64,000 nucleotides of DNA. It comes from an uncultured candidate division Zixibacteria bacterium (GTDB taxonomy: Bacteria > Zixibacteria > MSB-5A5 > RBG-16-43-9). Numbering within the stretch: position 1 is the stretch's first letter; the number at the start of each line of letters is the position of its first letter. This document shows positions 43,491 to 61,442 of the stretch, piece after piece. The notes below the pieces were generated by a model. The model worked only from the letters and a program-made list of their open reading frames with translations. It was not told where the DNA came from and did no database searches. The stretch covers positions 1,984,001-2,048,000 of the forward strand of contig OY970208.1 in assembly GCA_963713865.1 (NCBI GenBank). Direction: 5' to 3'. Position numbers and translations under genes: made by a program.

Positions 43491-43521
43491 TTTATTACCT
43501 CTTATTTTCAGTTTTTTTTTC

Positions 43522-43592
43522 GTAGGGCAACCCTTTAGGAGTGCTTTTTTTCTGCAAGGCTGAAGTCTCAAGACCTTGAGGCCTTGCCCTAC
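43522..43592. repeat. GTAG-type REP doublet with nested 16-bp palindrome
   Basis: GTAGGGCAACCC..; GCAAGGCTGAAG[TCTCAAGACCTTGAGG]CCTTGCCCTAC. Confidence 0.75.
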
Positions 43593-43600
43593 CTATATTT

Positions 43601-44284
43601 CTATAAATTATAACTCTCGCCGATCTTGAGTATCTTCACTTTGGTCTTAGAGTCTTTTAGTTTATTGGCAAATATTTCCGGGTTTTGTTTAATGATATCA
43701 AAAGTATCAAAATGCATTGGAATAACCACTTTCGGATTTAGAAACTCTGTTGCCTTTACTGCATCCTCAATCCCCATTGTGAAATTATCCCCAATCGGAA
43801 TCAATGCTAAATCTAACTTATTCATCTCCCCTATCAATTTCATATCCGAAAAAAGTCCGGTATCCCCGGAATGATACACAATCTTTCCTGCAAAATTAAC
43901 CACGAATCCGCAAGGGTTGCCGGTATAGGTAATATCCTCATCTATTACTGCTGAGCCATGGTGAGCTATGGTCAGTTTAACCCGGCCGAAATTAAAATCC
44001 CGGCTTCCCCCGATATGCATAGGATGAACGTTAGCACCTTTTTTCTGGCAGTACATTGCCAGCTCAAACGGAGCAATAACCAAAGCATTATTCTTTTTAG
44101 CAATAGCTAATGCATCTCCTAAATGGTCACCGTGCCCGTGCGATAAAAGTATCGCTTCAACTTTGATCTCTTCTGGGCTTATTTTTGCTAAAGGATTTCC
44201 AGAAATAAAAGGATCAAAAATAATCTTATGCTCCTCATCCTCTAAAGTAAAACAAGAGTGCCCTAAATAAGTTAATTTGACCAT
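43601..44284 (-). CDS. UPF0173 metal-dependent hydrolase (MBL fold)
   Basis: YLGHS, DPFISGNP, SHGHGDHLGD, YHSGDTGLFSDM, PIGDNFTMG, IPMH. Confidence 0.9.
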   Translation of the reverse strand: MVKLTYLGHSCFTLEDEEHKIIFDPFISGNPLAKISPEEIKVEAILLSHGHGDHLGDALAIAKKNNALVIAPFELAMYCQKKGANVHPMHIGGSRDFNFGRVKLTIAHHGSAVIDEDITYTGNPCGFVVNFAGKIVYHSGDTGLFSDMKLIGEMNKLDLALIPIGDNFTMGIEDAVKATEFLNPKVVIPMHFDTFDIIKQNPEIFANKLKDSKTKVKILKIGESYNL

Positions 44285-44378
44285 AACTCCTCCATTTTCA
44301 TTCAAAGGTTTTATTTCCCTTCAATTCAATTTAAAAACTGTCAAGTCTTTGTCAAGAAAAAAGCCAGTTTAAGAGAAC

Positions 44379-44450
44379 GTAGGGACAGAATCCGCCTGAG
44401 GTGGATTCTGTCCCTACAAAATTCCCGTCGGGCATAAAACCCGACGCTAC
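44379..44450. repeat. REP-like palindromes downstream of the kinase array
   Basis: GTAGGGACAGAA[TCCGCCTGAGGTGGA]TTCTGTCCCTAC; CGTCGGGCATAAAACCCGACGCTAC. Confidence 0.8.
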
Positions 44451-44478
44451 TTTCTTTTCCCTATCTACTGTATGCTGT

Positions 44479-47418
44479 TTACTGTCTACTTTTCAGTTTT
44501 CTCAATCTTTCCTTAGCATCTGCAATTTCAGGTATCCCCGGGTCAGCATTCTTCCATATATCCAGAAACTCCTCATATTTCTCAATCGCCTTTTTGTTCC
44601 AGCCAGATTTCTCATAAGCCAAGCCTAAAAGATAATAAGCTTTTACTGCCCTGTAAGACCACACTCTGTCATCGTCATATCTTGAGAGTGCCTTTTCTAA
44701 TTCAGATACTGCCTCGTCAAGTCTGCCTCTTTTCAAGTAAATTTCCGCCAGATGAGAACGGAGATCAAAAGATGGAGTTGGTGAGTCCTTATACGCCCTT
44801 TCTAAATAGCTCAATGCCATGGTGGTATCTCCTTTGACTAACTCTATGTCGCTCAATGTCCACCAGTAAGAAGACATTAGCTTTGGATTCTTTTCCTCAA
44901 TATCCTTTTTCAAAGCTTTTGCTAATTCTTCAGCTTCAGCAATTTTTCCACTCTTAGTGAGAAGAAAAGCGTAACCATCCCTCCCGTACACGGGATCATT
45001 AGGTTTGGCTTTCTTGTATATTTCCATGCCCATTTCCATTTCCTTTGATGCTAAATCCATCTTTTTCTGCCTTTCATAGAGAAGAAATGCCTTATCGAAA
45101 TGTTTATAAGCATTCATGTCCCCGTCAAACTGTTCCATTCTGTCTGCTGCAATGCCATCGTCTAAAACCTTGAGGGCATCTTCGAACTTCCCCTGGTAAG
45201 AAGGAATCAATTCTAAATATACCCTTCCCATTGACCTCAAACGCTTCTCGCTGTTAGAACAAAGTGCCTGAAAACAGCTTTCAGCTTTAGTATAATCTTT
45301 CTTGAAAACATACATATCCCCCAGCATGTACTGAGACGTAAAGAAGTCGGGTTTTATCTCTAATGCTTTCTTGTAAGATTCTATCGCTTGGTCGAGCTTA
45401 CCATTCCAGGCAAATAACTCAGCTCTTGAATCGTAGGGATTTGGTTCATCCGGGGCTAATTCTATATATTTGTTTATAGCCCAGATAGATTTGTCAAAAT
45501 CTCCCATTTCATTGTAGGCATAGGCTAGAATGTTGTAAGCTAGTTTATAGAGAGGGTCTATCTGGATGGCTTTGCTGAGATAATAAACTGCTTCTTTGAA
45601 CTCGTGGAGATTATTATTATAAATTTGTCCTAATACATAAAATGCGTCTTTTTCATCAGGGTAACTTTCAACTATTTTTTTTAGTCCGTTTATTGCTTGA
45701 GAATAATCACCTGTTATATAGGCTCCAAAACCTTTAATATAAAGTTTTTCCTTCTGGGTTATCTTATCTGTGTATTTCGCAGCTTTGGTAATGAACTCTC
45801 TTGCTGCCCTATCATCACCTGCATATCGATTAATTACTGCCAGCCAATAATATGCCATAGCAAAGGTAGAATCAAACTCTAGAGCTTTCTTGAGACTTTT
45901 CTCTGCCTCTGCAAAGTAAAGTTTGTAACCGTAATCAACGCCTTCGAGAAAGTAACGATATGCTTCTTGCGAATGGGTCGTAACCTTAGCTACAGACGGT
46001 TCCTTCTCCTGCTGGGCTGAGACAGGAAGAGTAAAACCTTTTTTGATTTCAACGGTTAGCCTATCAACTAAAGAGAAGACATCTTGCTCCTTTTCTCCCG
46101 TGATTCGTTGAGATGCCTTTATTTCACCAGTTCCGACATCGACTAACTGGGTTGTTATTTCGATTCTTGGCTTAACTTGGAGTATACTCCCCAGAAGCAT
46201 CCATTTAACCCCGGCTTTTGTGGCAACCTGGGATGCCATATTCTTATCTATCCTCTTTTCTCCCTCTCTTCCCAAAAGCTTGAGAATATCGTATAATCTC
46301 TGGCTGGATACTACCTTGAGATATTGCGACTCGGATAAACCAGTAATTAACAGATTAGTAACAATTTCACCAAGCTTTTGCTTGTCCTCCGGATCAGCCA
46401 GATTATCAAAATACATTACTGCTAAGGAGTTCTCTTTAGCTACTGCACCTTTTTCCGGAGCTACCTCAAATTTGAAAGGTTTAAGAATCAAGAAAAGTAA
46501 AATCAGGATGAAAACCACTGAGGCAGGAATAACAATCGGCAAAAGTTTCTTCTTAGGCTTAGGAGTAATCACTTCTTTTGGAATTTGACCGGTTTTCATG
46601 TATTCCAAATTTTTCTTTTCGTGCCTTAAATCTGCAAGTAAATCATCTATATGCTGGTATCTTTCCTCTTTATCTTTGATTAATGCTTTGAAGACGATCC
46701 GCTCTAATTCAGAGGAAACCTGATTATTGTATCTGGCTACAGGCTGAGGCTCTTCGTTGATTATCGAGTAAACAATAGCGGCCTGATGTTCTCCTCCAAA
46801 AGGTAAATTTTTGGTCAAAAGCTCATACAATACTACACCAAAAGAGAAGATATCGCTTCTTGAATCGACTTCCTCACCTTGAGCCTGCTCAGGTGACATA
46901 TAAGCTAAAGTCCCTAAGGTTGAGCGTGTCTTGGTCAGCTTGGTTGCTCCTTTCAGCTTTGCCAGTCCAAAATCCATTATCTTAACCTGACCTCGAGGAG
47001 TAAGCATTATGTTATCCGACTTGATATCCCGGTGCACAATCCCCTTCTCATGAGCCATAGCTAACCCTTCACATATCTGTATCCCGATATCCAGAACCTT
47101 TCTTATGGAGAGAGTTTCTTTCTCAATTACCTGCTTCAAAGTCCTGCCCTCACAGTATTCCATAACTATAAACATCTGCCCTTCAAATTCATCGATCTCG
47201 TAAATGGTAGTGATGTTAGGATGATTTAAAGCTGAAGCGGCTTTGGCTTCGTGGATAAACCTTTCCTTCTCAACAGCATCAGCGGTCAGATGTTGGGGTA
47301 AAAACTTCAAAGCGACCAGTCGATCCAGTTTGGTGTCTTGGGTTTTATAAACTATTCCCATTCCACCTTCCCCTAACTTTTCCAGAATTCTATAATGTGA
47401 GATCGTCCGTCCAATCAT
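44479..47418 (-). CDS. Ser/Thr kinase - TM - TolB_N/FlgO-like - TPR protein (array gene K6)
   Basis: GEGGMG, ALK, HRDIKSDN, DFG, YMSPE; TM LLPIVIPASVVFILILLFLIL; SLAVMYFDN; many TPRs. Confidence 0.95.
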   Translation of the reverse strand: MIGRTISHYRILEKLGEGGMGIVYKTQDTKLDRLVALKFLPQHLTADAVEKERFIHEAKAASALNHPNITTIYEIDEFEGQMFIVMEYCEGRTLKQVIEKETLSIRKVLDIGIQICEGLAMAHEKGIVHRDIKSDNIMLTPRGQVKIMDFGLAKLKGATKLTKTRSTLGTLAYMSPEQAQGEEVDSRSDIFSFGVVLYELLTKNLPFGGEHQAAIVYSIINEEPQPVARYNNQVSSELERIVFKALIKDKEERYQHIDDLLADLRHEKKNLEYMKTGQIPKEVITPKPKKKLLPIVIPASVVFILILLFLILKPFKFEVAPEKGAVAKENSLAVMYFDNLADPEDKQKLGEIVTNLLITGLSESQYLKVVSSQRLYDILKLLGREGEKRIDKNMASQVATKAGVKWMLLGSILQVKPRIEITTQLVDVGTGEIKASQRITGEKEQDVFSLVDRLTVEIKKGFTLPVSAQQEKEPSVAKVTTHSQEAYRYFLEGVDYGYKLYFAEAEKSLKKALEFDSTFAMAYYWLAVINRYAGDDRAAREFITKAAKYTDKITQKEKLYIKGFGAYITGDYSQAINGLKKIVESYPDEKDAFYVLGQIYNNNLHEFKEAVYYLSKAIQIDPLYKLAYNILAYAYNEMGDFDKSIWAINKYIELAPDEPNPYDSRAELFAWNGKLDQAIESYKKALEIKPDFFTSQYMLGDMYVFKKDYTKAESCFQALCSNSEKRLRSMGRVYLELIPSYQGKFEDALKVLDDGIAADRMEQFDGDMNAYKHFDKAFLLYERQKKMDLASKEMEMGMEIYKKAKPNDPVYGRDGYAFLLTKSGKIAEAEELAKALKKDIEEKNPKLMSSYWWTLSDIELVKGDTTMALSYLERAYKDSPTPSFDLRSHLAEIYLKRGRLDEAVSELEKALSRYDDDRVWSYRAVKAYYLLGLAYEKSGWNKKAIEKYEEFLDIWKNADPGIPEIADAKERLRKLKSRQ

Positions 47419-47567
47419 AGATCACACCTCCCGCTTTCGCTTCGCTTCAGCGGGATCCTCAAATTCGCAACCACTCGTTGAAAAAAGACTCGTGGGCGAA
47501 TTTGGGACATCCCACCCTCACCCAGCTTTTCTAAAATCTTGTAATGAGATATTGTTTTTCCAATCAT
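47415..47567 (-). pseudogene. Abortive kinase 5' fragment interrupted by a 79-bp palindromic element
   Basis: Reads MIGKTISHYKILEKLGEGGM, then insert 47507-47429, then GGT GTG ATC TAT (GVIY); the 50-aa ORF's TGA overlaps the K6 ATG. Confidence 0.85.
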
Positions 47568-47611
47568 GATATTATTGTTTCATTTGTTCATTGTTCCATT
47601 GATTCAATCCC

Positions 47612-50188
47612 TTATCCTTTCGGCTTCAAAAGCTCCTTAAACGGCGGGTAATCCCACAACGATTCAAAGTCAACATCTGTATGGAGATCGATACTATAGG
47701 AGCGTCCTTGCAAAAAGCTCTCCTTCAGAAGGGCTATCGCCTGATCCTTGTCCCCCAGAATTGCTGCAATACATGCACGGTTATAAGTATACCCACCAAA
47801 AAGATATGGCTTCTTCAGGTTTTTGAGCCATTCAGAGACTCTCAGCGCTTTTTCTTTATCCCCTTGCCGAGCTGCTATAAGACCAAGCCACCCTTGATAA
47901 TCAATGTTGTCAGGCGAATCCTTGGCAAGTTCCTCGAAAATGCTCTTTGCCTCCTCCCATCGCCGAGCATCATACAGCGTAAGGGCATAGGCGTTGCGAA
48001 GGAGGGAATCCATCTCTTCAGCCGGCCTGCTTTTATACCATTGAACTGACTGGTCAAAAATCGTCATGGCAGCGTCTGCATACCCGTGAGCGCGCAATTC
48101 CTCTCCAGCACCTCTCATGGTACCTCCGGGAGTACCCGTGGCAATCCCGGGTTTGGTAAGGGTCAGACTTTCTTCAATAAGTTTTTTGACCTCCTCGATC
48201 TTCCCCAGGGCAGCAAGTGCCCGGATTTCGTAGTTCAAGGCACTCAGGGATGTCGGGAATCTTTTGCGAGCCTGTTTTGCGATTTCGAGTTCCTTTTTGT
48301 GCTCCCCCAGAAGGTGGTATGAGGCAGTGAAGAAACCCCAATAGAAGAGCCAGACTTGTTCCTGGTCAGCCATCTTGAACGCCTCAACGGCTTCTTTGGG
48401 GCGATTTACCAGAAATGCGTCCAAGCCCCACTCATAAGCATAGAAAGGTCCAGGCGCGATCTTGGCTGCTTCTCGCACAGCATTCAAGCATTTCATCCTA
48501 TCACCTGAAACCCAACCGCTTTCCTCGTCCAACCCCAATTGCTGAAGAGGAGTGAGTTGAGCACGGCGCAGATTAAGAAATCGCACCAGGGAATCTGCCT
48601 GTGCCAATTGCCCGAGGTTTATGTATGCAGCACACGCGTCGGTCAACGGAAAAAAGAACGATGTGTCTATAGTGTAAGCCCGCTTGAAGTATTCGAGTGC
48701 TCCCTGATAGTCGAACTGTTTTGAAAAGAGGTCCAATCCCTGGACGTACTGTTGGTATGCATCGTACTTAGGAGGCTTTGATACCTGCGTAGCCCATCCT
48801 TCCAGCCGTTTATCCAGCACAAGGGCAAGGGCGCCCAGCACCCGCTGGCGCACAGATTCAACTCCGTCCATGGTTTTTCTGGCTTCAGAGGTTACCGGTT
48901 CAATCGCCGTAAGAAGCTTTTCATTAGCATCCATTACCTTCGCTTGAAACTCGATAGTATCACCTAACTTGTAATAGGAACCAATCACAATCATGCTTGC
49001 ACCAGTTGCCTTGGCAATTGAGCGGACACTCTTGAGTTTTTCAAGTTCAGGCACTTTTTCTGGCGGAACAACTTCAGCTAAACCTGTCTGCAGAAGACTC
49101 TGGGTAGTCCAATCTGCAATCATCCGTCCAAGAGAATTAAGCGACGGGTCTCCGGTTTGGTTCTGGAACGGCACGACAACCACCCGCTTGGCAACCTGTT
49201 TTGAGACTTTAAATGGCTGCAGGAAAAAAATCACAACAACTGACCCGATAACCAAAACCGCTAATCCAACCAGCCATATCAGGTTTTTTCGGAAAAAGCT
49301 CGGTTGAGAAATGATTTTTGGCTCTGTCGGCAACGGTTGACTCACAATTGCTTCCGGCACACGGTGCACGCGTGAAGTATCTTTCTTCAGCCTGCGCAGC
49401 TCGATGACCACGTCCGCCATCGATTGGTATCTATCGTCCGGAGTCTTCTCCAGCAAACGATTGAGAATGTGAATTAGGTCTGAGGATGTATCCGGCAGAT
49501 ATTTCTGAATCGGTTCAGGGTCCTCATTCACAATCGAATACATCATCGCCGCCTCGTGCTCTCCCTTAAAGGGCAATTGTCCGGTGAGCATCTCGTAAAG
49601 GACAATGCCAAAGGAGAAAATATCAGACCTGGCATCTATCTCACCTCCCTGGATCTGTTCAGGTGCCATATAGGCAAGGGTCCCAACTGTGCTGGAGGTT
49701 TTCGTAAGTTTAAGAGAACCTTTTAGCTTTGCCAGGCCGAAATCCATCACCTTGACCTGGTTCTTGGAGTTGATCATTATATTATCAGATTTAATATCCC
49801 GATGGACTATTCCCTGACTGTGTGCCTCCTTTAACGCCTCCCCAATCTGGATGGCATAGGTTATTGCTTCGTTCACTGAAAGAGCTTTGCTCTCAAATTT
49901 CTTTCTTAAAGTCACACCGTCCACATATTCCATAACGATGAACTGCTGTCCTTTTTCCTCCTGAATATCATGGATTACACAGACGTTAGGATGATTTAAA
50001 GCTGAGGCTGATTTCGCCTCCTGTAAAAAGCGGGCTTTTTCAGCTTCGCTGGCTACGAGTTGAGGCGGGAGAAACTTCAGGGCTAAAAGCCGGTCAAGCT
50101 TAATATCCTGGGCTTTATAAACCACCCCCATCCCACCTTCACCCAGCTTCTCCAGGATTTTGTAATGTGAGATAGTTTTACCGATCAT
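47612..50188 (-). CDS. Ser/Thr kinase - TM - TolB_N-like - TPR protein (K5)
   Basis: Kinase motifs (YMAPE), TM LIWLVGLAVLVIGSVVVIFFL, VVVVPFQNQTGD, TPRs, C-terminal D.DFESLWDYPPF. Confidence 0.95.
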   Translation of the reverse strand: MIGKTISHYKILEKLGEGGMGVVYKAQDIKLDRLLALKFLPPQLVASEAEKARFLQEAKSASALNHPNVCVIHDIQEEKGQQFIVMEYVDGVTLRKKFESKALSVNEAITYAIQIGEALKEAHSQGIVHRDIKSDNIMINSKNQVKVMDFGLAKLKGSLKLTKTSSTVGTLAYMAPEQIQGGEIDARSDIFSFGIVLYEMLTGQLPFKGEHEAAMMYSIVNEDPEPIQKYLPDTSSDLIHILNRLLEKTPDDRYQSMADVVIELRRLKKDTSRVHRVPEAIVSQPLPTEPKIISQPSFFRKNLIWLVGLAVLVIGSVVVIFFLQPFKVSKQVAKRVVVVPFQNQTGDPSLNSLGRMIADWTTQSLLQTGLAEVVPPEKVPELEKLKSVRSIAKATGASMIVIGSYYKLGDTIEFQAKVMDANEKLLTAIEPVTSEARKTMDGVESVRQRVLGALALVLDKRLEGWATQVSKPPKYDAYQQYVQGLDLFSKQFDYQGALEYFKRAYTIDTSFFFPLTDACAAYINLGQLAQADSLVRFLNLRRAQLTPLQQLGLDEESGWVSGDRMKCLNAVREAAKIAPGPFYAYEWGLDAFLVNRPKEAVEAFKMADQEQVWLFYWGFFTASYHLLGEHKKELEIAKQARKRFPTSLSALNYEIRALAALGKIEEVKKLIEESLTLTKPGIATGTPGGTMRGAGEELRAHGYADAAMTIFDQSVQWYKSRPAEEMDSLLRNAYALTLYDARRWEEAKSIFEELAKDSPDNIDYQGWLGLIAARQGDKEKALRVSEWLKNLKKPYLFGGYTYNRACIAAILGDKDQAIALLKESFLQGRSYSIDLHTDVDFESLWDYPPFKELLKPKG

Positions 50189-50193
50189 CTTTT

Positions 50194-52788
50194 TTATATC
50201 TTTCGATTAATCAATTCTTCAAACGCTGGATAACCAGATAGATTCTCGAACGACGGCTCCAATTTAATATAAGCAGGTGTCATAAAATTGTTCTTCACCA
50301 AGAATTCGAGCATACGCACTGCCTCTTCTTTTTGTCCTGTAGCCGAATAAACGTAACTCAGGCTCCAAACCGCTCCAGACCACTCCACAGTTAGAAGGGA
50401 ATTCCCTAAACTTTTCTTCACTCTCTCTGCCTGCTCCAGGGCTTTTTTGGATTCTCCTTTTAATGAATAGGCTAAGGCTATTCTTAACCGACTATAATAT
50501 TCATTGGGAAGACCTTCAAATTCTTTGATTAAAGGTAGATTGAACTGAATGCAGGAATCCAAGTATATTTCCGCCTGTTTTTTATTTCCTCTCCTAAGCT
50601 CTGAGTAACTCAATTCTACAAACCATTCGCCAGCTGGGTTTTGTCGGCGTAATTCATTTGAATAATAAAAAACGCTGTCGGCCTCGCCTGACACCATAAA
50701 AATCCAATTCAAGGTCCCTAAAGAGGAGGTGCGCTGTGGGTCGATATTCAGAGATTTATGAGCCATTCTTTTTGCTTCTTCTAATTCACCCCAGACCAGG
50801 TGGCAACCACTCATGGCATCCCATATTGATGCATCGGTAGACTGAATCTCCAATCCTTTGTTAAAATATTCCTCCACCTTTTCTTTCTTCCCCCAGGCTG
50901 AGTACAAGCTTATAAACTTAGAGAATAAGGTAGCTTGGGTTGGCTTTACCTCTAACGCTCTCATCAAAGCACTCTCAGCTTTTGGATATTGACCAATGCT
51001 ATACCACCAGTATCCCAAAGTCCCCCAGCCTTCTCCATAATTAGGATTGGCTTTGACCGCTTCTTCTGCCTCTTGTATGCCCTTTTCGGTTTTCCCCTCG
51101 ACCATGTATAGCCTGGAGAGAGAGCGATGAGCCTCGGCCAAATCTGGGTCGAGAGCCAATGCTTTTAAGCTGGCTTTTTCAGCTTTTTCCAGCCAGGACT
51201 TCTTGGGGTCAACAGAAAACATCACATAGCTCGAATAGCAATCCGACAATCCAGCATAAGCTAAAGCAAAATTAGAATCAGCTTCCAATGCTTTTTCAAA
51301 CATCCTGGTTGACAGTTCCAGGCCTTCTTTAGTTGTACTTCCTCCTCCGAAATAATATTCCCGTCCTTGCAGATAGTAGTTGTAAGCTTGAACATTCAGG
51401 GTCGGTTTTTTTTCAATCCTTTCTACTTCAACTGGAGCAAGGGCAACTTTTAGTGCCTGGGCAACTGACTTAGCTACATCTGCCTGAATGGCAAATAGAT
51501 CCTCCATCTGTCTATCGTAGCTAGCTGCCCAAACGTGGAATCCATCACTGGCTTTAATCAGCTGACAAGTAATTCTGACCTTATCTCTGTATTTTTGGAC
51601 TGAACCTTCCATTACATACTTAACTCTTAACTTATCAGCTATCTCCTTAAGATTAATTGGTTTATTTTTGAATTGTTCAATGTCACTTCGGGAAGCAATC
51701 AGTAAGCCAGCGATTTGGGATAGCTGGGTGATAATATCTTCAGTCATTCCAGACGCAAAATAGTCATCTTCTTTATTTTCAGAGAGATTCCGCAAATACA
51801 GAACTGCTATGGAAGGTTTGCCAGCAGTAACTGGTTCTTTTTGTTTGAGAAATACTAAGTAAACTATAATAAGAATTAAAATCGCCATTAATCCTGCCAT
51901 CAATGGAAAAGCTCTCTTTTTGACTGGCTTGGGAGAATCAGTGGGTTTAGGTGTTACTCCTGTTTTGACATAATCCAAACTTTTCTTTTCCCTCCTCAAA
52001 TCTGCTAACAATTCATCAGCATGTTGATACCTTTCTTCTTTATCCTTTGCCAGTGCCTTGAAAACCATATCTTCTAACTTGGCGGAAACCTGATTGTTAA
52101 AACGGGCTACTGGCTGAGGTTCTTCATTAATTACCGAGTAAACAATAGCAGCTTGATGCTCTCCTCCAAAAGGAAGCTTCCCGGTCAGAAGCTCATATAA
52201 AACAACCCCAAATGAGAAGATATCACTTCTCTGGTCAACTTCCTCACCTTGAGCTTGCTCTGGTGACATATAGGCAAGAGTCCCTAAAGTTGAACGAGTC
52301 TTGGTCAGTTTGGTTGCTCCTTTCAGCTTTGCCAAACCGAAATCCATTATCTTCACCTGCCCTCGAGGAGTAAGCATTATATTGTCAGATTTGATATCTC
52401 GGTGCACAATCCCCTTCTCGTGAGCTAAAGCTAAACCTTCACATATCTGAATCCCGATATCCAAAACCTTTTTTATAGAAATGGTCTCTTTTTCAATTAT
52501 CTGCTTCAAAGTCTTACCCTCGCAATATTCCATCACTATAAACATCTGCCCTTCGAATTCATCGATCTCATAAATGGTGGTGATGTTCGTGTGATTTAAA
52601 GCTGAAGCTGCTTTGGCTTCGTGGATAAACCTTTCCTTCTCCTCAGACTCAGAGGTCAGATGCGGAGGTAAGAACTTTAAAGCCACCAGACGGTCTAATT
52701 TAGTGTCCTGGGCTTTATAGACCACACCCATTCCACCCTCACCCAGCTTCTCGACGATTTTATAATGAGAAATTATTTTACCGATCAT
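50194..52788 (-). CDS. Ser/Thr kinase - TM - TolB_N-like - TPR protein (K4)
   Basis: Kinase motifs, TM, SIAVLYLRNLS..DDYFASGMTEDIITQLS, TPRs. Confidence 0.95.
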   Translation of the reverse strand: MIGKIISHYKIVEKLGEGGMGVVYKAQDTKLDRLVALKFLPPHLTSESEEKERFIHEAKAASALNHTNITTIYEIDEFEGQMFIVMEYCEGKTLKQIIEKETISIKKVLDIGIQICEGLALAHEKGIVHRDIKSDNIMLTPRGQVKIMDFGLAKLKGATKLTKTRSTLGTLAYMSPEQAQGEEVDQRSDIFSFGVVLYELLTGKLPFGGEHQAAIVYSVINEEPQPVARFNNQVSAKLEDMVFKALAKDKEERYQHADELLADLRREKKSLDYVKTGVTPKPTDSPKPVKKRAFPLMAGLMAILILIIVYLVFLKQKEPVTAGKPSIAVLYLRNLSENKEDDYFASGMTEDIITQLSQIAGLLIASRSDIEQFKNKPINLKEIADKLRVKYVMEGSVQKYRDKVRITCQLIKASDGFHVWAASYDRQMEDLFAIQADVAKSVAQALKVALAPVEVERIEKKPTLNVQAYNYYLQGREYYFGGGSTTKEGLELSTRMFEKALEADSNFALAYAGLSDCYSSYVMFSVDPKKSWLEKAEKASLKALALDPDLAEAHRSLSRLYMVEGKTEKGIQEAEEAVKANPNYGEGWGTLGYWWYSIGQYPKAESALMRALEVKPTQATLFSKFISLYSAWGKKEKVEEYFNKGLEIQSTDASIWDAMSGCHLVWGELEEAKRMAHKSLNIDPQRTSSLGTLNWIFMVSGEADSVFYYSNELRRQNPAGEWFVELSYSELRRGNKKQAEIYLDSCIQFNLPLIKEFEGLPNEYYSRLRIALAYSLKGESKKALEQAERVKKSLGNSLLTVEWSGAVWSLSYVYSATGQKEEAVRMLEFLVKNNFMTPAYIKLEPSFENLSGYPAFEELINRKI

Positions 52789-52796
52789 TCCTGAAC

Positions 52797-55406
52797 CTAT
52801 TTACTCCTTGCCAAAAGTTTCTGAAAGCGGGGTTGGTTACGTAAAGGAGCCCAGGTTGGGTCGATACGAAGATATGGAATTGAGATCTCCGAAGGGATCG
52901 ACAAAAGATACTCAAGCTGGTCTATGGCAGAGTCGTAATCACTAACCATAACATATATCTGTGCCAAATTCTGGACATAGCCAGGACCGTCGAGTGCATC
53001 CTTAGGTACAGGGAGTAATTCCACCCCTTTTTTCCCTTCCCGGATTGCCTCTTCTTTGCGTCCAAGCCCGGCATAAGCGATGCCGAGATAACTGTGGAAG
53101 AACGCCTCGCCTGGCCTTGACTGTATCCTGTTTTCGAGGATGATTCTAGCAGAGTCACTATAGACCAGTTTCAGCTGTTGTCGATTCAGCAAACCATATA
53201 TTTTAGCTTTAGTCAAAAAGTAAGATATTGTATCATTACGACCACCCGCATCCACGTATGCGCAGACCCCAGGTAGCCGACCTAATGCTGTCTGATAGTC
53301 TCCATCGAGAACATCCAACCATACCAAATCAGGCACAAGTAGCGACACATCTGCCTTTCCGGTCGCCTCATGGAAAACTTTCCTCGCTTTTTTTGTGTCA
53401 CCCTCCGAGATTTGATATAGCCAGGCCTTGCGACTATAAGCTACTGGCCAATCAGGAGCCAGAGAGATGACTCTGTCCAAGTAGTACTCTGCCTCGGCAT
53501 ATTTGCGCATAAGTCGGTAGGTAGTGGCAACCTCATCTGCCTTATCGTAGGCTCGCGGGTCAAGCTCTGCTGCCTTCTTGAGGTTAGTGACCGCCTGCTC
53601 GAATTTCCCCTGACGCCTTTGAACAAAACTGATAGCCGCAAGGAGGTCGCTGTTATTCGGCTGACCTTTCTGGGCAATTGCAAACTGCTCCAGGGCACGG
53701 TCATAGTCCCAGCTTCCCCAGTAGTAATAATAGCCCAGGGCCAAGTGCGCTTCAGGCAGATCCGGCTTCAGCTTCAGGGCTTTGTCCACAGCTTCTTTGG
53801 CTTTATTAAGGCGCTCGTCAGTATTGTCCCAATAAAACCAATACAGCCAAGAATGAGCCCATGAAAGTCTGGCATAGGCTAACGCAAAAGCCGGGTCTAA
53901 CTTCACCACTTTCTCATACATCTCTATAGCTATGCGGACATCTTTCTCCCCCTTACCATAAATAAAATAATCCTCACCGCGCAGATAGTATTCGTAAGCC
54001 TCAAGGTTCTCGGTCGGCTTGGCTGCTATGTACCGTTGCTCAGCTTCGAGAAGCGTGATGTTCAATGCAGAAGCTACCTTCTCTGCTATGTCAGCTTGAA
54101 GGGCAAAAACCTGCTCCAGAACACGGTCATATGTCTCGGCCCAAACATGGGTACCGTCTTTGACTCTGATTAGCTGGGGATTTATTCTTACCCGATTGTT
54201 AACTTCAGACTTATCCCATAGAATTGTCCCTTCTAAGACATACTGGACCCCCAATTCTCTGCCTATTTGCTGAACAGTTTTCTTGGTATCTTTGTATTGG
54301 AGAACACTGGTGCGGGAGATAACACCCAAACCGCTGACTTTGGCCAACTGGGTCGTTATCTCGTCGGTGATGCCATCAGCAAAATACTCCTGCTCTGGCG
54401 CTCCTAAATTTTCAAAGGGTAAAACCGCAAGCATCTTTATTCCGGATTCCGGCTCCTTTTTACTCAATAGGGTAAAGTATCCTACAATCAAAATAAGAAC
54501 CGCCAGTCCAGCCAAAACTAAGGGTAACATTTTCTTCTTGAGCGGCTTTTGTGTCTCTACGGGCTGAGCCAGCGTGGCTGTCTTCACATATTCCAAACTC
54601 TTCTTCTCGTGCCTTAAATCTGCCAACAATTCATCAGCATGTTGATACCTTTCCTCTCTGTCTTTTGCCAGTGCTTTGAAAACTATCCGCTCCAGTTCTG
54701 CTGAAACTTTGTTGTTATATCTGGCTACTTGCTGTGGCTGTTCATTGATTATCGAGAAAATAATAGCGGCCTGATGTTCACCCCCAAAGGGCAACTTTCC
54801 AGTTAAAAGCTCATATAAGACAACGCCAAAGGAAAAAATATCGCTTCTTGAATCTACTTCCTCGCCCTGAGCTTGCTCTGGTGACATATAAGCTAAAGTG
54901 CCCAAGGTTGAGCGAGTTTTGGTCAGCTTGGTTGCTCCCTTTAGCTTTGCCAATCCGAAATCCATTATCTTCACCTGACCCCGAGGAGTGAGCATTATGT
55001 TATCCGATTTGATATCCCTGTGCACAATCCCTTTCTCATGAGCCATAGCCAAACCTTCACATACCTGTATCCCAATATCCAGAACCTTCTTTATAGAGAG
55101 AGCTTCTTTCTCAATCACTTGCTTTAAAGTCCTGCCCTCACAATATTCCATCACTATAAACATCTGACCATCAAATTCATCAATCTCGTGAATAGTAGTG
55201 ATATTGGTATGACTTAAAGCTGATGCGGCTTTGGCTTCGTGAATGAATCTTTCCTTCTCAACAGCATCGGCGGTCAGATGTTGGGGTAGAAACTTCAAAG
55301 CCACTATTCTATCCAGCTTAGTGTCCTGGGCTTTGTAAACTATTCCCATACCACCTTCACCCAGCTTTTCGAGAATCTTATAATGCGAAATGGTTTTGCC
55401 AATCAT
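52797..55406 (-). CDS. Ser/Thr kinase - TM - TolB_N-like - TPR protein (K3)
   Basis: Kinase motifs, TM, LAVLPFENLG..QEYFADGITDEI, TPRs, DP.WAPLR..PRFQ. Confidence 0.95.
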   Translation of the reverse strand: MIGKTISHYKILEKLGEGGMGIVYKAQDTKLDRIVALKFLPQHLTADAVEKERFIHEAKAASALSHTNITTIHEIDEFDGQMFIVMEYCEGRTLKQVIEKEALSIKKVLDIGIQVCEGLAMAHEKGIVHRDIKSDNIMLTPRGQVKIMDFGLAKLKGATKLTKTRSTLGTLAYMSPEQAQGEEVDSRSDIFSFGVVLYELLTGKLPFGGEHQAAIIFSIINEQPQQVARYNNKVSAELERIVFKALAKDREERYQHADELLADLRHEKKSLEYVKTATLAQPVETQKPLKKKMLPLVLAGLAVLILIVGYFTLLSKKEPESGIKMLAVLPFENLGAPEQEYFADGITDEITTQLAKVSGLGVISRTSVLQYKDTKKTVQQIGRELGVQYVLEGTILWDKSEVNNRVRINPQLIRVKDGTHVWAETYDRVLEQVFALQADIAEKVASALNITLLEAEQRYIAAKPTENLEAYEYYLRGEDYFIYGKGEKDVRIAIEMYEKVVKLDPAFALAYARLSWAHSWLYWFYWDNTDERLNKAKEAVDKALKLKPDLPEAHLALGYYYYWGSWDYDRALEQFAIAQKGQPNNSDLLAAISFVQRRQGKFEQAVTNLKKAAELDPRAYDKADEVATTYRLMRKYAEAEYYLDRVISLAPDWPVAYSRKAWLYQISEGDTKKARKVFHEATGKADVSLLVPDLVWLDVLDGDYQTALGRLPGVCAYVDAGGRNDTISYFLTKAKIYGLLNRQQLKLVYSDSARIILENRIQSRPGEAFFHSYLGIAYAGLGRKEEAIREGKKGVELLPVPKDALDGPGYVQNLAQIYVMVSDYDSAIDQLEYLLSIPSEISIPYLRIDPTWAPLRNQPRFQKLLARSK

Positions 55407-57728
55407 TCTTCCAATCCTATCTTTTTAATTAGTGCAACCACTCGTGGGTCTTTGCTATAGTCTTCCCATCCCGGGAAAGTTCGTATGAATAGCAGCATAA
55501 GAGACCTATATTCAGAAGCTTTTTCCAAACATTCGATAACCTTATCATGCTCACCTAAAGCAAGATATACTACGGCAAAGAGATAAGGATCTACATACCG
55601 ATGTTTTGATTCCTCGATTAAATCGCTAAGAATTTTGCGTGCCTCATTTTCTTTACCAGAACGCTGCATAAGCATAAGCCAGCCAACTAAGAGAAATACT
55701 GTTCTTTAAGGCAATTGATTTTTGATATTGATTTATCGCCTCGTTATACATTTTTTTACACAAATAACAATTACCAAGCATATCATACCCGAATGCTAAA
55801 GTGCTGTCGATTTTTAATATTTCATTGGCTAAGGTTATCGCACTATCACACTGTCCGGAATAGAGAAAAACATATACCATACTCGTGCTTATGTCAAAAG
55901 AAAGCGGGTCAAGCTCTCTGGCTTTCTTTGCTTTCCTTATTGCTTCATCAAACCGTTTCATTGCTGACAGGTAGTAAGCATACCAGGCATAAGCAGTTGC
56001 ATAATTTGGATTAAGCTCGATGGCTCGTTTGTAGTTTTCCTCAGCTCCCCTCCAATCCCATTCGTAACAAAATTTGACATCAGCCATAAGCACATACGCA
56101 TCCGCCAGCGTTTTGTCAAGGCTCAGTGCTTTCCTGGCTAATGAATCTACTTTCGGCCAGGCTTCCTTTGGTGGCATCGTAGCCAAAGCAAGATAATCAT
56201 ATCCTTTTGCCATACCGGTATAGGCTAAGGCATAGTCTGGGTCTTTCTGAATGGCCTCTTCAAAGTATTTGAATCCTTTTTCAACATCTGCGGGTGATAA
56301 TTTGTTGACGAAGTACATCCCTTTAAGATACAGCTCATGAGCTTCAGGATTGACTGTGCGGTAAGCTGCTAATTTTTGCTGTTCTTCAGGTGTTACAGTG
56401 ATTTTTATTTCACGTGCAATTGCCTGTGCAACTTCGCTCTGGAGTATCAGGATATCTTTAAATTTTCTGGTGAAATCACTTGCCCACAGGTGTTTCTCCG
56501 GTTTTGCCTTGATAAGTTGCGCCGTAATTCTGACATCGTCCTGCACTCGCTGAACCGACCCTTCTACAACCGCATCCACGTTTAAATCATGAGCTATCTC
56601 CGGCAACGATTTCTCTGTTTTCTTGAAATGCATGACCGAAGTCCGGGAGATAACCCGGAGTGCTTTGATTTTCGATAATTCCGAGATAAGCGCTTCAGTA
56701 ATTCCATCGGAGAAATACTCCTGCTCAGGATCAGCGGAGAGATTTTGGAAAGGCAGAACAGCTATTGAATTGATCGGCACTTCCCGTGAAGCGAAGAAAT
56801 AGAGTTTACTGAGGATAAGAATTGCGATTAGGATTGTAACACTGACATATACATAAATCGGTACCTTCATTAAACGCTTTGGTTTTCTCCTTTCTTGTAT
56901 TGGCGTCGTCGTTTCAAGTCTCTTCTTGAGATATTTAAAATCAGCCATCATCTCGTCAACATGCTGATAGCGTTCATCCTTCCCTTTTGACAATGCCTTA
57001 TCAATGATTTTTTGTAGTCCCTCTGGAACATTCGCTTTATACCTTGCCAGAGGTTCTGGGGTCTCATTTAAAATAGAATAGATTATCGCAGCTTCATGTT
57101 CCCCCTTGAAGGGAAGTTGTCCTGTAATCATCTCATACAACACCACTCCAAACGAGAAAATGTCTGAACGCTGGTCAACTTCCATCCCTTGAGCTTGCTC
57201 CGGGGACATATAGGCCAATGTGCCAACTGTAGAACCTGTCCTGGTTAGTTTGCTTACTCCTCGGAGCTTAGCCAAACCAAAATCCATGATCTTAACCTGA
57301 CCATCTTCTGTTAGCATGATGTTGTCAGATTTTATATCCCGATGGACTATCTCCTTCTTGTGGGCAGCATTTAGTCCCTCTGCTATCTGAATGGATATGT
57401 TCAAAATTTCTTCTATAGAAAAACTTCTCTGTTTAAGTAATTCTTTTATAGATCTACCTTCAATATAAGCCATGGAGATAAAGCATTCCCCTTCGACTTC
57501 ATCGATTTCATAAATGGTAGCTATATTGGGGTGGTCTAATGCAGATGCAGCTTTGGCTTCATGCTCAAATCTCATTTTGGCTTCACTATCGCACAAAAGA
57601 TGTTTTGACAAAAACTTTAGAGCTACTATCCGGTTCAACTTGGTGTCCTGGGCTTTATAAACTATTCCCATTCCACCTTCCCCTAACTTTTCCAGAATTC
57701 TATAATGTGAGATGTTTTTACCAATCAT
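55403..57728 (-). CDS. Ser/Thr kinase - TM - TolB_N-like - TPR protein (K2), +1 frameshift near 55660
   Basis: ORF 55653-57728 ends AYAYAAFW*; removing one base continues into SGKENEARKIL..HRYVDPY..DPRVVALIKKIGLE, homologous to the K1 C-terminus. Confidence 0.9.
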
Positions 57729-57731
57729 TGC

Positions 57732-57875
57732 TTATCCTTTATAGCCGCATGTATGAACCACATGGTTCATACCGCAGACTTTAGTCTGCGTCATTTTATC
57801 GCAAGCTGGATTCCTTCGAAATGGATCCGTAGGACTTGCGGTTACCTTATAATAAGATATCGTTTTACCAATCAT
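57732..57875 (-). pseudogene. Abortive kinase 5' fragment plus REP doublet upstream of K2
   Basis: MIGKTISYYK followed by GTAACCGCAAG..CTTGCG..CGCAGACTAAAGTCTGCG..GCGGCTAT; in frame with K2, separated by TAA GCA. Confidence 0.8.
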
Positions 57876-57960
57876 GTTATTATTTATTCATTGTTTCATT
57901 TGTTCATTGATCCATTTTATCATTGAACCAATGAGTCAATCATTCAATGTTACAATCTTT

Positions 57961-60195
57961 TCATTTTTCAGATCTTATCTTTTTAAGCAGTACCGTGAAC
58001 CTCGGGTCTGAGCGCAGGCTATCCATAAAGGGAGCGGTTTTGAGAGTAGCCATCCAGGACTCTCGCTCATCATAAGCTTTATCCAGGTATTCAAATGCAT
58101 GATCCTTCTTACCCAGTCCACCATAGATTAGCGCTTTGTATAAAGACGAAACATACCTTTTTTTTGATAGTTCGTTCAATTGATCAAGCATTTTTAGCGC
58201 TTCATCTGTTTGTCCCGACAGAGCATAGGCTAATCCAAGATGCCCTATTCCGATTGGGCTGTTCATGGATAGCGCCACGAACCTTTTCAAAGATGCAATC
58301 GCTTCTTTCCACATTTCCTTGCCAACAAGGTTAAATCCCTGAAAAAGATAGGCTAAGGAGAAGTTCGGGTCCATCTCGAGCGTTCTTCGATATTGATCCA
58401 ATGCTTCATCATACTGGCGTGCCCAATACAATCCAAGTCCTACAACTGTGCTTATCATCAGGGAAAGGGGATCCAACTCAAGAGCCCGTTTCAATAATAT
58501 CGATGCTTCATCTAATCGTTCCATTGGTGCTAAAGACACCGCGTACCATTCGTACCCTGTCGCATAGTTTGGATTGAGATTAAGGGCACGCTTGAATTCC
58601 TCTTCAGCACCAATCCAGTCCCAGTCATAGAACGTTCGAATCCAACCCATTGAGGTATGAGCCTCGGCTAACTTGTCATCAATCTCCAAAGCTTTCTCCG
58701 CGGCAGTCCTTGCTCGCGGATAGGCCTCTTTTGGAGGAAGCCAACCAAAATGCCCTAACAAGATATAACAGTCAGCCATTCCTACATAGGCCAGTGCGTA
58801 GAGTGGATCCTTTTCAATGGCTTGTTGAAAGAACTCAATCCCCTTTTGTAGTCCTCCTTCATAGCGTCTGTTCCAGAAATAACGGCCCTTCAAATACAGG
58901 TTATAAGCTTCCTGGTTTTCAGTAAACCGCTTCACCAGTTTCGCTTTCTCTTCTTTTAAAAGCTTGACCTTTAATCTGTCCACAATTGCCAGAGAGATTT
59001 CATCCTGGATTGCAAAGATGTCTTCTATGTTTCTATCGTATTTATCTGACCAGAGATGATAGCCGTCAGCAACGTTAATAAGCTGGGCGGTAATGCGGAC
59101 CCTGTTTCCCGCTTTCCGTACACTCCCTTCAAGTAAGTTCTCAATATTCAGCTGCCTTCCAATCTCGCGGACATCTATTTCTTTACCTCTAAATGAAAAA
59201 GACGAAGTTCGGGCAACTACTCGCAAACCTTCCAACTGCGTGAGCGCATTGATGATTTCCTCTGCCATACCATCACAGAAGTACTCTTGCTCTTTATCTG
59301 CGCTTAAATTGGTAAATGGCAACACTGCGATGGAAGGCTGAATCTTTTTTGTATAAGATTGATCTGTCGAGATAGTTAATTCCAGCTCTTTTGAAAGTTT
59401 CCTCAAATCAGTTCTTAAGTCATCCATATTCTGGTAACGCACCTCCCGGTTTTTCTCCAGTGCCTTATCCACTATTTTCTGCAACCCTTCCGGAATATTG
59501 GTTTTATACCTTGCCAATGGTTCAGGTGTTTCATTTAAAATAGAATAAATTATCGCCGCAGTGTGCTCACCCTTGAAAGGAAGTTGTCCGGTTATCATCT
59601 CATACAAAACCACTCCAAAAGAGAAAATATCTGAACGATAGTCAACTTCTATCCCTTGAGCTTGTTCCGGTGACATATAAGCTAAAGTTCCCAGGGTTAA
59701 GCCAATAGTGGTCAGCTTGGTAGCACCTTTAAGCTTTGCCAAGCCGAAATCCATTATCTTTACTAAACCTTCATTAGTAAGCATTATGTTATCTGACTTA
59801 ATATCTCTATGAACAATACCTTTCTTGTGAGCCGCGTTTAATCCTTCTCCAGTCTGTATGGCTATCTCTAAAACTTCCTTTAAAGAAAAACTCTTTTCTT
59901 TCAAAAGCTCTTTGAGAGATTTCCCCTCTATGTATTCCATAGCAATAAAGCATTCCCCTTCTTTCTCATCTATTTCGTAAATGGTGGTGATATTTGGATG
60001 ATTCAAAGCAGATGCGGCTTTGGCTTCGTGAATGAATCTTTCCTTCTTCTCAAATTCAGAGGTCAGGTGCGGAGGTAAAAACTTTAAAGCCACCAAACGG
60101 TCCAGCTTGGTATCCTGGGCTTTGTAAACTATTCCCATTCCACCTTCCCCTAACTTTTCCAGAATTCTATAATGTGAGATGTTTTTACCAATCAT
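57961..60195 (-). CDS. Ser/Thr kinase - TolB_N-like - TPR protein without TM helix (K1)
   Basis: Kinase motifs followed directly by PSIAVLPFTNLSADKEQEYFCDGMAEEII, TPRs, LRSDPRF. Confidence 0.95.
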   Translation of the reverse strand: MIGKNISHYRILEKLGEGGMGIVYKAQDTKLDRLVALKFLPPHLTSEFEKKERFIHEAKAASALNHPNITTIYEIDEKEGECFIAMEYIEGKSLKELLKEKSFSLKEVLEIAIQTGEGLNAAHKKGIVHRDIKSDNIMLTNEGLVKIMDFGLAKLKGATKLTTIGLTLGTLAYMSPEQAQGIEVDYRSDIFSFGVVLYEMITGQLPFKGEHTAAIIYSILNETPEPLARYKTNIPEGLQKIVDKALEKNREVRYQNMDDLRTDLRKLSKELELTISTDQSYTKKIQPSIAVLPFTNLSADKEQEYFCDGMAEEIINALTQLEGLRVVARTSSFSFRGKEIDVREIGRQLNIENLLEGSVRKAGNRVRITAQLINVADGYHLWSDKYDRNIEDIFAIQDEISLAIVDRLKVKLLKEEKAKLVKRFTENQEAYNLYLKGRYFWNRRYEGGLQKGIEFFQQAIEKDPLYALAYVGMADCYILLGHFGWLPPKEAYPRARTAAEKALEIDDKLAEAHTSMGWIRTFYDWDWIGAEEEFKRALNLNPNYATGYEWYAVSLAPMERLDEASILLKRALELDPLSLMISTVVGLGLYWARQYDEALDQYRRTLEMDPNFSLAYLFQGFNLVGKEMWKEAIASLKRFVALSMNSPIGIGHLGLAYALSGQTDEALKMLDQLNELSKKRYVSSLYKALIYGGLGKKDHAFEYLDKAYDERESWMATLKTAPFMDSLRSDPRFTVLLKKIRSEK

Positions 60196-60198
60196 TGC

Positions 60199-60321
60199 TT
60201 ATCCTTTATAGCCGCAGGTATGAACCACATAATTCATACCTCAGACTTTAGTCTGCGCTACTTTATCGCATGCTTGAGCTTGTGGCTTCCCTATAATATT
60301 AGAAATTATTCTAACAATCAT
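60199..60321 (-). pseudogene. Degenerate kinase 5' fragment plus REP doublet upstream of K1
   Basis: ATGATTGTTAGAATAATTTCTAATATTATAGG resembles ATGATTGGTA.AA.AAT.TCTCATTATA; followed by the same REP doublet and AAAGGATAAGCA-ATG as upstream of K2. Confidence 0.65.
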
Positions 60322-60445
60322 AGTTTCCCGTTGATAGAGCTTTGATTACGTCCTTAATAAATTGAGAAATTATTTATTTGTCAACAAGGAAATTGTTGAC
60401 TCTCCTGTAATGAGATTTATATTGTAAACTGTAGGTAACCAAAAA

Positions 60446-60922
60446 ATGACCGAAAACCTGAATGAAAAATGGATGCAGGTAGCCCTACGGGAAGCAAGGA
60501 TAGCTCTTAAGAAAAAAGAGGTGCCAGTGGGTGCGGTAGCGGTCTATCAGGGTAAAATCATTGGCAGGGGACATAACCAGACCGAAAGTCTAAACGATCC
60601 CACTGCCCATGCTGAAATCTTAGCTATTGGAGCCGCCTCAAATTGCTTAAACTCCTGGAGACTTTCGGAAGCAGATTTATACGTTACCTTAGAGCCCTGC
60701 CCTATGTGTGCTGGAGCAATAGTATTATCCAGGATCAGAAAGCTGGTCTTTGGAGCTTATGATCCCAAAAGCGGTGCCTGTGGTTCCTTATATAATTTAG
60801 TTCAGGATAAAAGGTTTAACCATCAAGTAGAGTTAGTATCCGAGGTATTAAAAGATGAGTGTTCAGAGCTTCTTCAGGCTTTCTTTAAAGAACTGAGAGA
60901 AAGAAAAGATGAATCAGAATAA
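60446..60922 (+). CDS. tadA: tRNA adenosine(34) deaminase
   Basis: EVPVGAV, DPTAHAE, LYVTLEPCPMCAGA, DPK.GA.GS, NH. Confidence 0.95.
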   Translation: MTENLNEKWMQVALREARIALKKKEVPVGAVAVYQGKIIGRGHNQTESLNDPTAHAEILAIGAASNCLNSWRLSEADLYVTLEPCPMCAGAIVLSRIRKLVFGAYDPKSGACGSLYNLVQDKRFNHQVELVSEVLKDECSELLQAFFKELRERKDESE

Positions 60923-61442
60923 AATAGAATCAATTGAAAAGATATATCTCCGGATATTGCATTTAGGAATCCTCATGGACATATTTGCGCCCATAGTCGT
61001 ATTCTTTTTTGCAATTCTCCTCAGAGAGAGATTGATCCATATCCAGAGCATAAAGGAGCTAAACCTCTTATTCTATGTTTTATTAATAATAAGCTTGTTG
61101 GAGATTGCAGCAATTTTCATCTTCAGAAAAAGATTCTGGGAACCTTTTATTCAGAGGAAAGTAGGGCATCTGCCTATGGCGGACAGTCTTGCTCAGAATA
61201 AAGCAGATTCAAATCCTCACTGCTCTATTGAGCAAAATCTCGTTACCTTTGGAATAGTTATCTTTACCCTTTGTTTTTCTCCTTCACTTTATGGATTAAT
61301 CTATTATCTTTTAGGTGGAACCTGGGAGCATTTTGCCATATTCATTGCCATAACTTTTCTCTCTTTCCAGCTGTTTAAACCGAAACAGGAAGAGCTTGAA
61401 AAACTGACCAGAGATTTAAATGTAAGTGCAAATTCTTTTTAA
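60909..61442 (+). CDS. Hypothetical four-TM membrane protein containing an in-frame REP-derived segment
   Basis: Four hydrophobic helices; overlaps the tadA stop; 61161-61229 is repeat-like. Confidence 0.7.
   Translation: MNQNKIESIEKIYLRILHLGILMDIFAPIVVFFFAILLRERLIHIQSIKELNLLFYVLLIISLLEIAAIFIFRKRFWEPFIQRKVGHLPMADSLAQNKADSNPHCSIEQNLVTFGIVIFTLCFSPSLYGLIYYLLGGTWEHFAIFIAITFLSFQLFKPKQEELEKLTRDLNVSANSF

Follow-up and report, generated by a model that had tools for sequence, protein, structure and literature searches.

We analysed a window of 64,000 nucleotides (the whole stretch under study; contig OY970208.1, positions 1,984,001 to 2,048,000) from an uncultured candidate division Zixibacteria bacterium, G000, whose genome is a single contig of 2.72 Mb with 40% G+C. 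Coordinates without a prefix are window positions, and those marked "genome" are whole-contig positions of G000. Between 44306 and 60445 the window carries an array of six genes with Pkinase and tetratricopeptide repeat (TPR) domain matches, K1 to K6, all on the minus strand. K3, K4 and K5 are tightly spaced (5–8 nt), and upstream gaps occur only at K1, K2 and K6. Each of these gaps contains a kinase-type start, then a palindromic stretch, then an intact ATGATTGG start. A preliminary description of this DNA had placed a truncated start ("stub"), a palindrome and a fresh start before K6, K2 and K1, with the stubs beginning at 47567, 57875 and 60321, and all of these coordinates and frames hold. 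The inserts at K1 and K2 are ordinary repeats of the repetitive extragenic palindromic (REP) type, and the unit at K6 is a conserved, kinase-specific 5' module that occurs on different gene bodies.

K6 (44479..47418) encodes a Ser/Thr kinase of 979 amino acids with Pkinase and TPR domains. Stub 1 (47415..47567) is an upstream open reading frame (uORF) of 50 codons, the first 20 of which are a kinase N-terminus: its first 60 nt encode MIGKTISHYKILEKLGEGGM, which matches full-length genes of the family at 20 of 20 residues. The TGA of the uORF overlaps the K6 ATG at 47418. Between the kinase codons of the stub and the fresh start lie hp1 (47455..47507), a hairpin that comparison of units identifies as an optional 48-nt insert; hp2 (47430..47454), a CCCGCT...AGCGGG hairpin that is present in every K6-type unit; and AGGTGTGATCT (47419..47429), which is made up of the Shine-Dalgarno sequence GGAGGTG, overlapping the end of hp2, and a spacer. 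Neither hp1 nor hp2 has another copy anywhere in G000. Taken with the AT of the ATG, AGGTGTGATCT matches kinase codons 21–24, GGTGTGGTCTAT, at 11 of 12 bases.

We searched for the 119-nt insert of K6 in an order-level set of 34 genomes, G000 included; the relatives are fragmented assemblies, from which repeats are often lost. Of the 34 genomes, 10 carry the K6-type unit; each of the order's four families is represented, and the unit always stands at a kinase head. Scanning one genome per species for the pattern gave 13 loci, 12 of them K6-type units (individual loci and units carry L numbers); the match L070, in a GC-rich record of another phylum, was rejected as chance. We examined 15 K6-type units, 14 by script and L036 by eye. 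hp1 is missing from units L036–L040; the units without it come from three genomes (G010, G015 and G013) and two further loci. Two variants of hp1 are related by compensatory changes in 4 base pairs. The junction always lies directly after codon 20 (GGnATG), and the 12 bases that follow hp2, GGTGTG(G/A)TCTAT, are kinase codons 21–24 (GVVY). In unit L035 (genome G021) these 12 bases continue into codons 25 onward with no fresh start. Because L035 runs on in this way, we infer that hp2 was inserted between kinase codons 20 and 21 and that the new start was joined later, at TAT/ATG; alternatively, L035 may reflect a secondary deletion between the two 12-mers.

Stub units also occur at kinase loci outside the array. 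G000 has at least 16 kinase loci of this family, four of them with a stub unit. The fourth unit, at genome ~2255130, consists of 6 kinase codons, a palindrome of a third kind (AACTCACCC...GGGATGAGTT), 22 nt and a fresh start. The loci that we fetched from the congener G001 include 15 full-length kinases and 8 stubs (five of K6 type, three of AACTCACCC type), and at two places in G001 two stubs stand in series. Two further G000 kinases, at genome 2296851 and 2309122, have GAGGTGTGAAG before the ATG, which resembles the K6-type GGAGGTGTGATCT.

Stubs 2 and 3 are shorter. Stub 2 (57846..57875) consists of 10 kinase codons, MIGKTISYYK, after which likeness to kinases ends. Its ATG lies 147 nt upstream of the K2 ATG (57728), in the same frame, and the open reading frame (ORF) ends TAA GCA ATG; the in-frame TAA that closes it belongs to the native ribosome-binding region of K2, AAAGGATAAGCA (57729..57740). 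Stub 3 (60291..60321) is a decayed kinase start (MIVRIIS) with a 1-nt indel, as seen by direct reading and alignment; its ATG is 126 nt upstream of the K1 ATG (60195), and an earlier TGA is present. A promoter-like sequence (60354..60384; TTGACA, 17 nt, TTTATT), followed by the 5' untranslated region (5'UTR) TCAAAGCTC, precedes it and is conserved before kinase starts or stubs in other genomes; a consensus promoter scan missed this site. In two other genomes a stub ATG follows this promoter and 5'UTR, and the ATG of stub 3 aligns with it; stub 3 is therefore a decayed real start rather than a chance ATG. The other two stubs are preceded by A-rich leaders, one after the K5 stop (47574..47606) and one after the K1 stop (57882..57930). 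Consistent with the octamer-repeat leader that had been proposed for both, the two are homologous, with a periodicity of 8/16 nt in Tandem Repeats Finder. A-rich leaders with a weak or absent Shine-Dalgarno sequence are found at most kinase starts of G000 as well as at the stubs of K2 and K6. A kinase pseudogene at genome 999502, open for 184 amino acids and then frameshifted, follows a K5 paralog behind a similar A-rich leader, and is likely to picture what the gene of stub 1 once was.

The palindromic stretches after stubs 2 and 3 have the layout GTA(A/G)CC-hairpin ... hairpin-GGCTA(T/C). The one at K2 (57741..57845; GTAACC-hairpin ... hairpin-GGCTAT) belongs to a genome-wide family and has two further palindromes nested inside; the one at K1 (60208..60290) is a decayed paralog of the K2 doublet. 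The family has the tag and hairpin structure of REP sequences, GTAGCC followed by GCAAGC-ttta-GCTTGC on one side and GCAGAC-taaa-GTCTGC followed by GGCTAC on the other, with compensatory variants in some copies (GCAACC/GGTTGC and GCAGGC/GCCTGC). The 16-mer GCAGACTAAAGTCTGC occurs at ~30 G000 loci with up to 3 mismatches, mostly away from kinases, and the half-site GTAGCCGCA at 34 exact sites. Inverted pairing is also seen: strict end patterns recover nine complete doublets of 56–276 nt, and more are visible with a looser reading. The family is multi-copy and mostly intergenic, with positions relative to genes judged by eye only. Several other palindrome families are present in G000 at tens to more than 100 sites each, and two of them are the ones nested in the K2 doublet. 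Eight Y1-transposase matches were found in G000, six of which exceed the NCBIfam NF047646 cut-off for REP-associated tyrosine transposases (RAYTs). One RAYT gene is flanked by a sister REP subfamily, GTAGCG, and another by a different palindrome family; no RAYT gene has GTAGCC REPs within 1.2 kb, and the partner RAYT of the GTAGCC subfamily was not identified in G000.

REP doublets stand 12–22 nt before the ATG at 5 or more of 16 kinase starts in G000. Because kinases without a stub carry them too (genome 44647, 2299083 and ~2310785), a REP doublet before the start is normal for part of this kinase family. At kinase 44647, AAGGATAA of the K2 ribosome-binding region also lies between the REP doublet and the ATG. 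The K1/K2-type unit as a whole was not found in the 40 relatives searched and is known in G000 only. Direct repeats flanking the nine REP doublets score no higher than shuffled pairings (mean 6.06 versus 5.74), nor do those flanking five AACTCACCC elements (6.7 versus 6.15), both being small samples. We rejected a miniature inverted-repeat transposable element with target-site duplication as a description of these inserts, since they show no short target duplication of fixed length above the shuffled level. A seed-based scan for direct repeats around the hairpins mostly recovered the repeat elements themselves.

We next compared the units and the genes behind them. An exact 56-nt head tract is common to K1, K2 and K6, and their bodies are 55–75% identical. 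K1 and K2 are 90–100% identical from about −40 to +120, and 57–75% identical beyond. Across genomes, the unit cores (from hp2 to ~+90) are 96–100% identical and the gene bodies 40–70%; units L031 and L034 have near-identical cores in different genera, and upstream of the stub no similarity was seen between units of different genomes (e.g. G000 versus G005, G015 versus G011). The K6 ortholog, which directly follows the K2 ortholog in G001, has no stub or unit, and is ~86% identical to K6 over the whole gene and 89% over the C-terminal part. The K2 ortholog, 91% identical to K2 over the C-terminal part, carries a K6-type unit in place of the REP doublet. The heads of K2 and K6 (first 60–90 nt) are 66–76% identical to the heads of these orthologs, as compared with ~86% for the bodies. 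The head of K3 is 90% and 83% identical to the head of the G001 K6 ortholog in the first two 30-nt windows.

Translation of the K6-type stub is suggested by its reading frame. Of the 15 K6-type units, 12 have a stub ORF whose stop overlaps the new ATG (ATGA) and one has the stop 3 nt before it; of the remaining two, one is decayed and one lacks a new start. A stop at or near the main start that is kept across homologs is one feature of coupled uORFs, and the TAA GCA ATG of K2 has a comparable layout. The inserts fall into length classes of 37, 64 and 85 nt, all 1 mod 3, separated by steps of 27 and 48 nt, and both the 27-nt insert (unit L042) and the 48-nt insert (hp1) are multiples of three that are free of stops in the uORF frame. 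Frame-keeping inserts point suggestively to a uORF role, as a post hoc argument drawn from related units. Among stub differences, 71% fall at third codon positions, with 728 synonymous versus 246 non-synonymous codon differences; the figures for the working heads are 76%, 709 and 154. The K6 leader is predicted to fold more stably than shuffled sequences do (z = −3.25), and in this fold base pairing between the 3' arm of hp2 and the beginning of GGGAGGUG covers part of the Shine-Dalgarno sequence. No terminator-like site was found on the minus strand at the three units, and the T-run of hp1 sits in its loop. An Rfam search of 44000-64000 with permissive filters (E up to 1) returned only the tRNA described below and two overlapping sub-threshold matches at 61495-61678.

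A similar architecture exists outside the kinases. We scanned 2518 crude ORFs of G000 for repetition of the ORF head within 300 nt upstream, and beyond the kinases only glnA, a single-copy glutamine synthetase gene by Pfam, was convincing (L080, G000:C1:2531700-2532900, minus strand). Other high scorers were rejected as repeat arrays or noise, and the ORF heads strongly repeated upstream at genome ~411-414 kb and 1459-1463 kb look like repeat arrays, not stubs. In G000 and G001, glnA is preceded by a decayed ribosome-binding site, a TTG and ~7 codons. A palindromic insert of ~85–100 nt follows, part of which is a REP from a different family, and after the insert come the intact ribosome-binding site and its TTG; a direct duplication of ~50 nt flanks the insert. 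The empty site, with a single copy, is found in G003 and G006, and G004 fits by match coordinates only. Because glnA has no donor paralog, local duplication tied to insertion is a real route to this architecture. The shuffled-level flanks of the REP and AACTCACCC elements argue that duplication with insertion is not a general property of these repeats.

Considering the observed anatomy, repeat families, conservation and mosaic identity of the units together, we favour, with confidence a little better than even, the reading that the stubs are displaced old starts, behind a REP doublet at K1 and K2 and behind an exchanged kinase-specific 5' module with putative translational coupling at K6. On this reading each unit is made up of the first 6–24 kinase codons, a palindromic repeat inserted behind them, and a second ribosome-binding site and start, which the gene now uses instead. 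We infer that the K6 unit originated by local duplication or deletion, spreads by recombination in the conserved head, and functions by termination and reinitiation. The K6-type module (optional hp1, hp2, the Shine-Dalgarno sequence GGAGGTG and the first 20–30 codons) would pass from one kinase paralog to another through homologous recombination or gene conversion in the conserved head, joining within the old start on its left side and at about +60 to +90 in the coding sequence on its right. The K1/K2 unit would have arisen once and been copied to both genes, with its stubs decaying since. The K6-type unit may then act as a small uORF that feeds translation of the kinase: ribosomes would start at the old ATG, behind an A-rich leader without a Shine-Dalgarno sequence, translate through hp1 and through hp2, which is otherwise paired with part of the downstream Shine-Dalgarno sequence, stop at the TGA within ATGA, and then reinitiate on K6. 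The suggestion in the preliminary description that the stubs are retained uORFs is supported indirectly, and for coupling at the K6 type alone, by the frame conserved in 12 of 15 units; its attenuation variant has no support.

Several points weigh against the reading that we favour. The third-position bias of the stubs could reflect selection or, equally, repeated conversion from working heads, and the conservation of frame is partly inherited: the units descend from a common ancestor, and in GTGTGATCTATGA a TGA stands in two of the three frames. Nor do all stubs end on the new start, the exceptions being stub 3, the AACTCACCC-type stubs and unit L045. The near-identical cores could reflect recent transfer between genomes rather than exchange within them. 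Finally, recombination between paralogs cannot be the sole origin of the units, because single-copy glnA shows the same architecture.

It is possible, at clearly lower probability, that stubs and inserts are neutral scars, tolerated as debris in a fast-changing family, with an ATGA overlap that is inherited and plays no role in expression. The decay of stubs 2 and 3 and of the glnA stub would fit such an explanation, as would the strong Shine-Dalgarno sequence that the new start of K6 owns and the AACTCACCC-type stub ORFs, which stop at least 28 nt before the new ATG. Debris accounts less readily for two independent inserts (48 and 27 nt) that are both frame-keeping and stop-free, for the 12 of 15 units that end on ATGA, or for a K6-type unit present in all four families of the order. 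We give a similarly tentative place to an origin by local duplication instead of recombination between paralogs, in which a gene's own 5' piece (40–70 nt, with ribosome-binding site, start and first codons) was duplicated at the time or the place of insertion of the palindrome, and later gene conversion among kinases blurred the copies. The ~50-nt duplication at glnA with its empty sites in relatives, the REP doublet of kinase 44647 with AAGGATAA on either side, and rare codons common to stub and fresh head in several units are consistent with this route. It is less easily reconciled with the shuffled-level flank repeats at nine REP doublets and five AACTCACCC elements, with the K6-type layout, which is no simple copy-insert-copy since codons 21–24 follow the insert, or with the fresh heads of K2 and K6, which are unlike those of their orthologs. 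A bolder version of the exchanged module, which we consider rather unlikely, is that the K6-type unit (hp2, Shine-Dalgarno sequence and first 20–30 codons) is a self-spreading, homing-like start cassette. With the conserved head as its sole homology, it would replace the 5' ends of Ser/Thr kinase paralogs, both inside a Zixibacteria genome and from one such genome to another, and each time turn the displaced start into a uORF that gates translation of the kinase.

The preliminary description had read the stubs as scars of array building, left where new kinase cassettes entered at the conserved 5' end. Two elements of that proposal stand. The stubs are old starts that stayed in place, and the 56-nt tract and the contrast between heads and bodies support a joining of new DNA at the conserved 5' end. 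What moves appears to be a short 5' unit (hairpin, ribosome-binding site and first 20–30 codons) instead of a whole gene cassette. Nor do the units mark entry points of the array, as they also occur at kinases outside it, in series and behind promoters; the K6-type unit, spread across the order, is no fresh scar; the palindromes of K1 and K2 are members of a REP family that is found genome-wide and has no tie to kinases; and single-copy glnA has the same layout. Entry of whole cassettes at the stubs is accordingly improbable in our view. The 16-kb array is indeed missing between the same flanks in G001, G003 and G005, the genes on either side of K3–K5 are neighbours in G001, and the K6 5' end is duplicated over ~830 nt; the junction of that duplication is ~830 nt inside the kinase domain, with no stub there, and units are also found at single kinases and behind promoters. 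Programmed recoding, in which the ribosome would hop from Met20 to the new AUG, and attenuation by a leader peptide are both very improbable. The 89-nt insert of K6 has no ATG and a strong Shine-Dalgarno sequence precedes the landing AUG, but no stop follows the would-be take-off codon and the product would have a duplicated N-terminus; hp2 is not followed by a U-tract terminator, and there is no match to an Rfam family. Least credible of all is that the stubs are assembly chimeras. The region is rich in repeats and paralogs and K2 contains a 1-nt frameshift, yet the same units recur in independent assemblies and contigs from other sequencing runs bridge stub 2 and its REP doublet.

Parts of this architecture resemble known systems. 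REP sequences and REPINs combine a GTAG-type tag with a short hairpin and occur as inverted pairs (PMC3733652; PMC3337134). The K1/K2 insert is similar in having such a tag and hairpin, two of them inverted around a spacer, in being multi-copy, and in the presence of RAYT genes in G000; it differs in that the doublets lie inside an old coding start and have other palindromes nested within them. As in coupled uORFs with an ATGA stop-start, the K6 uORF stop overlaps the main ATG and a hairpin is predicted to cover part of the Shine-Dalgarno sequence, and the K2 uORF stop lies 3 nt before the ATG. Unlike in those systems, the uORF here copies the first 20 codons of its own downstream protein, and the unit recurs on different paralogs. 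We know of no described case of a uORF that copies the N-terminus of its own downstream protein, our literature search not having been aimed at this point. Rickettsia palindromic elements are inserted in frame in coding genes. hp1 (48 nt) and the L042 insert (27 nt) are comparable in being multiples of three without stops in the uORF frame, and differ in lying in a vestigial uORF, not in a working protein. Some integrating elements carry a replacement gene end, so that the gene is kept intact and a direct repeat is left (attL/attR). Here too the incoming DNA brings a copy of the displaced gene part; by contrast, the unit is only 100–180 nt long and has no integrase, and it probably inserts by way of its homology to the conserved kinase head. 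Among the papers that a literature search listed, none was on Zixibacteria kinases, and a search on REPIN, RAYT and gene conversion returned general REP papers only.

The case illustrates how a palindromic repeat may insert into the opening codons of a gene and not destroy it, with a second start stepping in, and how in a large paralog family a 5' end repaired in this way may turn into a unit carried by one gene after another. If coupling is true, a signalling-kinase family of an uncultured phylum would be under unusual translational control from its own N-terminus; if the homing-like cassette is true, the unit would be a mobile regulatory module, not debris. Annotators should take care, as gene callers will take the stubs for small ORFs or place false kinase starts there.

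The remaining features of the array bear on its history. K1 (57961..60195) encodes 744 amino acids. K2 (55403..57728) is split into a main ORF of 691 amino acids (55653-57728) and a tail ORF of 90 amino acids. K3 (52797..55406), K4 (50194..52788) and K5 (47612..50188) have kinase domain matches, all on the minus strand, and comparison with G001 orthologs shows K3 to be a chimera. Over its first ~830 nt, K3 is orthologous by position to the 5' end of the K6 ortholog of G001. This part of K3 and K6 are duplicates that post-date the split from G001, with the C-terminal part of K3, K4 and K5 lying between them; the junction is deep in the kinase domain, ~830 nt in and away from any stub. The best identity of the C-terminal part of K3 to other kinases found was only ~31%. 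In G001, G003 and G005 the whole array is absent between the same flanking genes, which encode a metallo-beta-lactamase-fold protein and a tadA-like deaminase, and the array was therefore built or moved in the G000 lineage, through joins inside kinase homology.

We also compared the region with contigs from other sequencing runs, of which only the bridging contigs and the difference at 55660 were used: many joints between paralogs are seen among these contigs, with short sides and 90% likeness, and they are indistinguishable from cross-mapping. In two other runs, contigs run unbroken at ~98% identity from the 3' end of K1 across the leader and stub 2 through its REP doublet. Together with the recurrence of K6-type units in independent assemblies, this makes misassembly an unlikely source of the stubs. 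The base at 55660 that splits K2 is left out in contigs of three of four runs, the fourth (X3) being without depth there, and the G001 ortholog is intact at 774 amino acids; the difference reflects a frameshift specific to the strain or else an error in the consensus. Contigs of runs X3 and X6 agree with the window from the tadA side across the K1 promoter as far as 60315, beyond which their sequence is unlike it and may be a different head behind the K1 promoter.

Short palindromic repeats flank the metallo-beta-lactamase-fold gene at 43516-43595 and 44379-44421, one of them at the array boundary, and repeats of the same kinds are present at dozens of sites in G001, G003 and G005. On the other side of the array, a tRNA gene with a long variable arm lies at 61507-61593 (52.8 bits).

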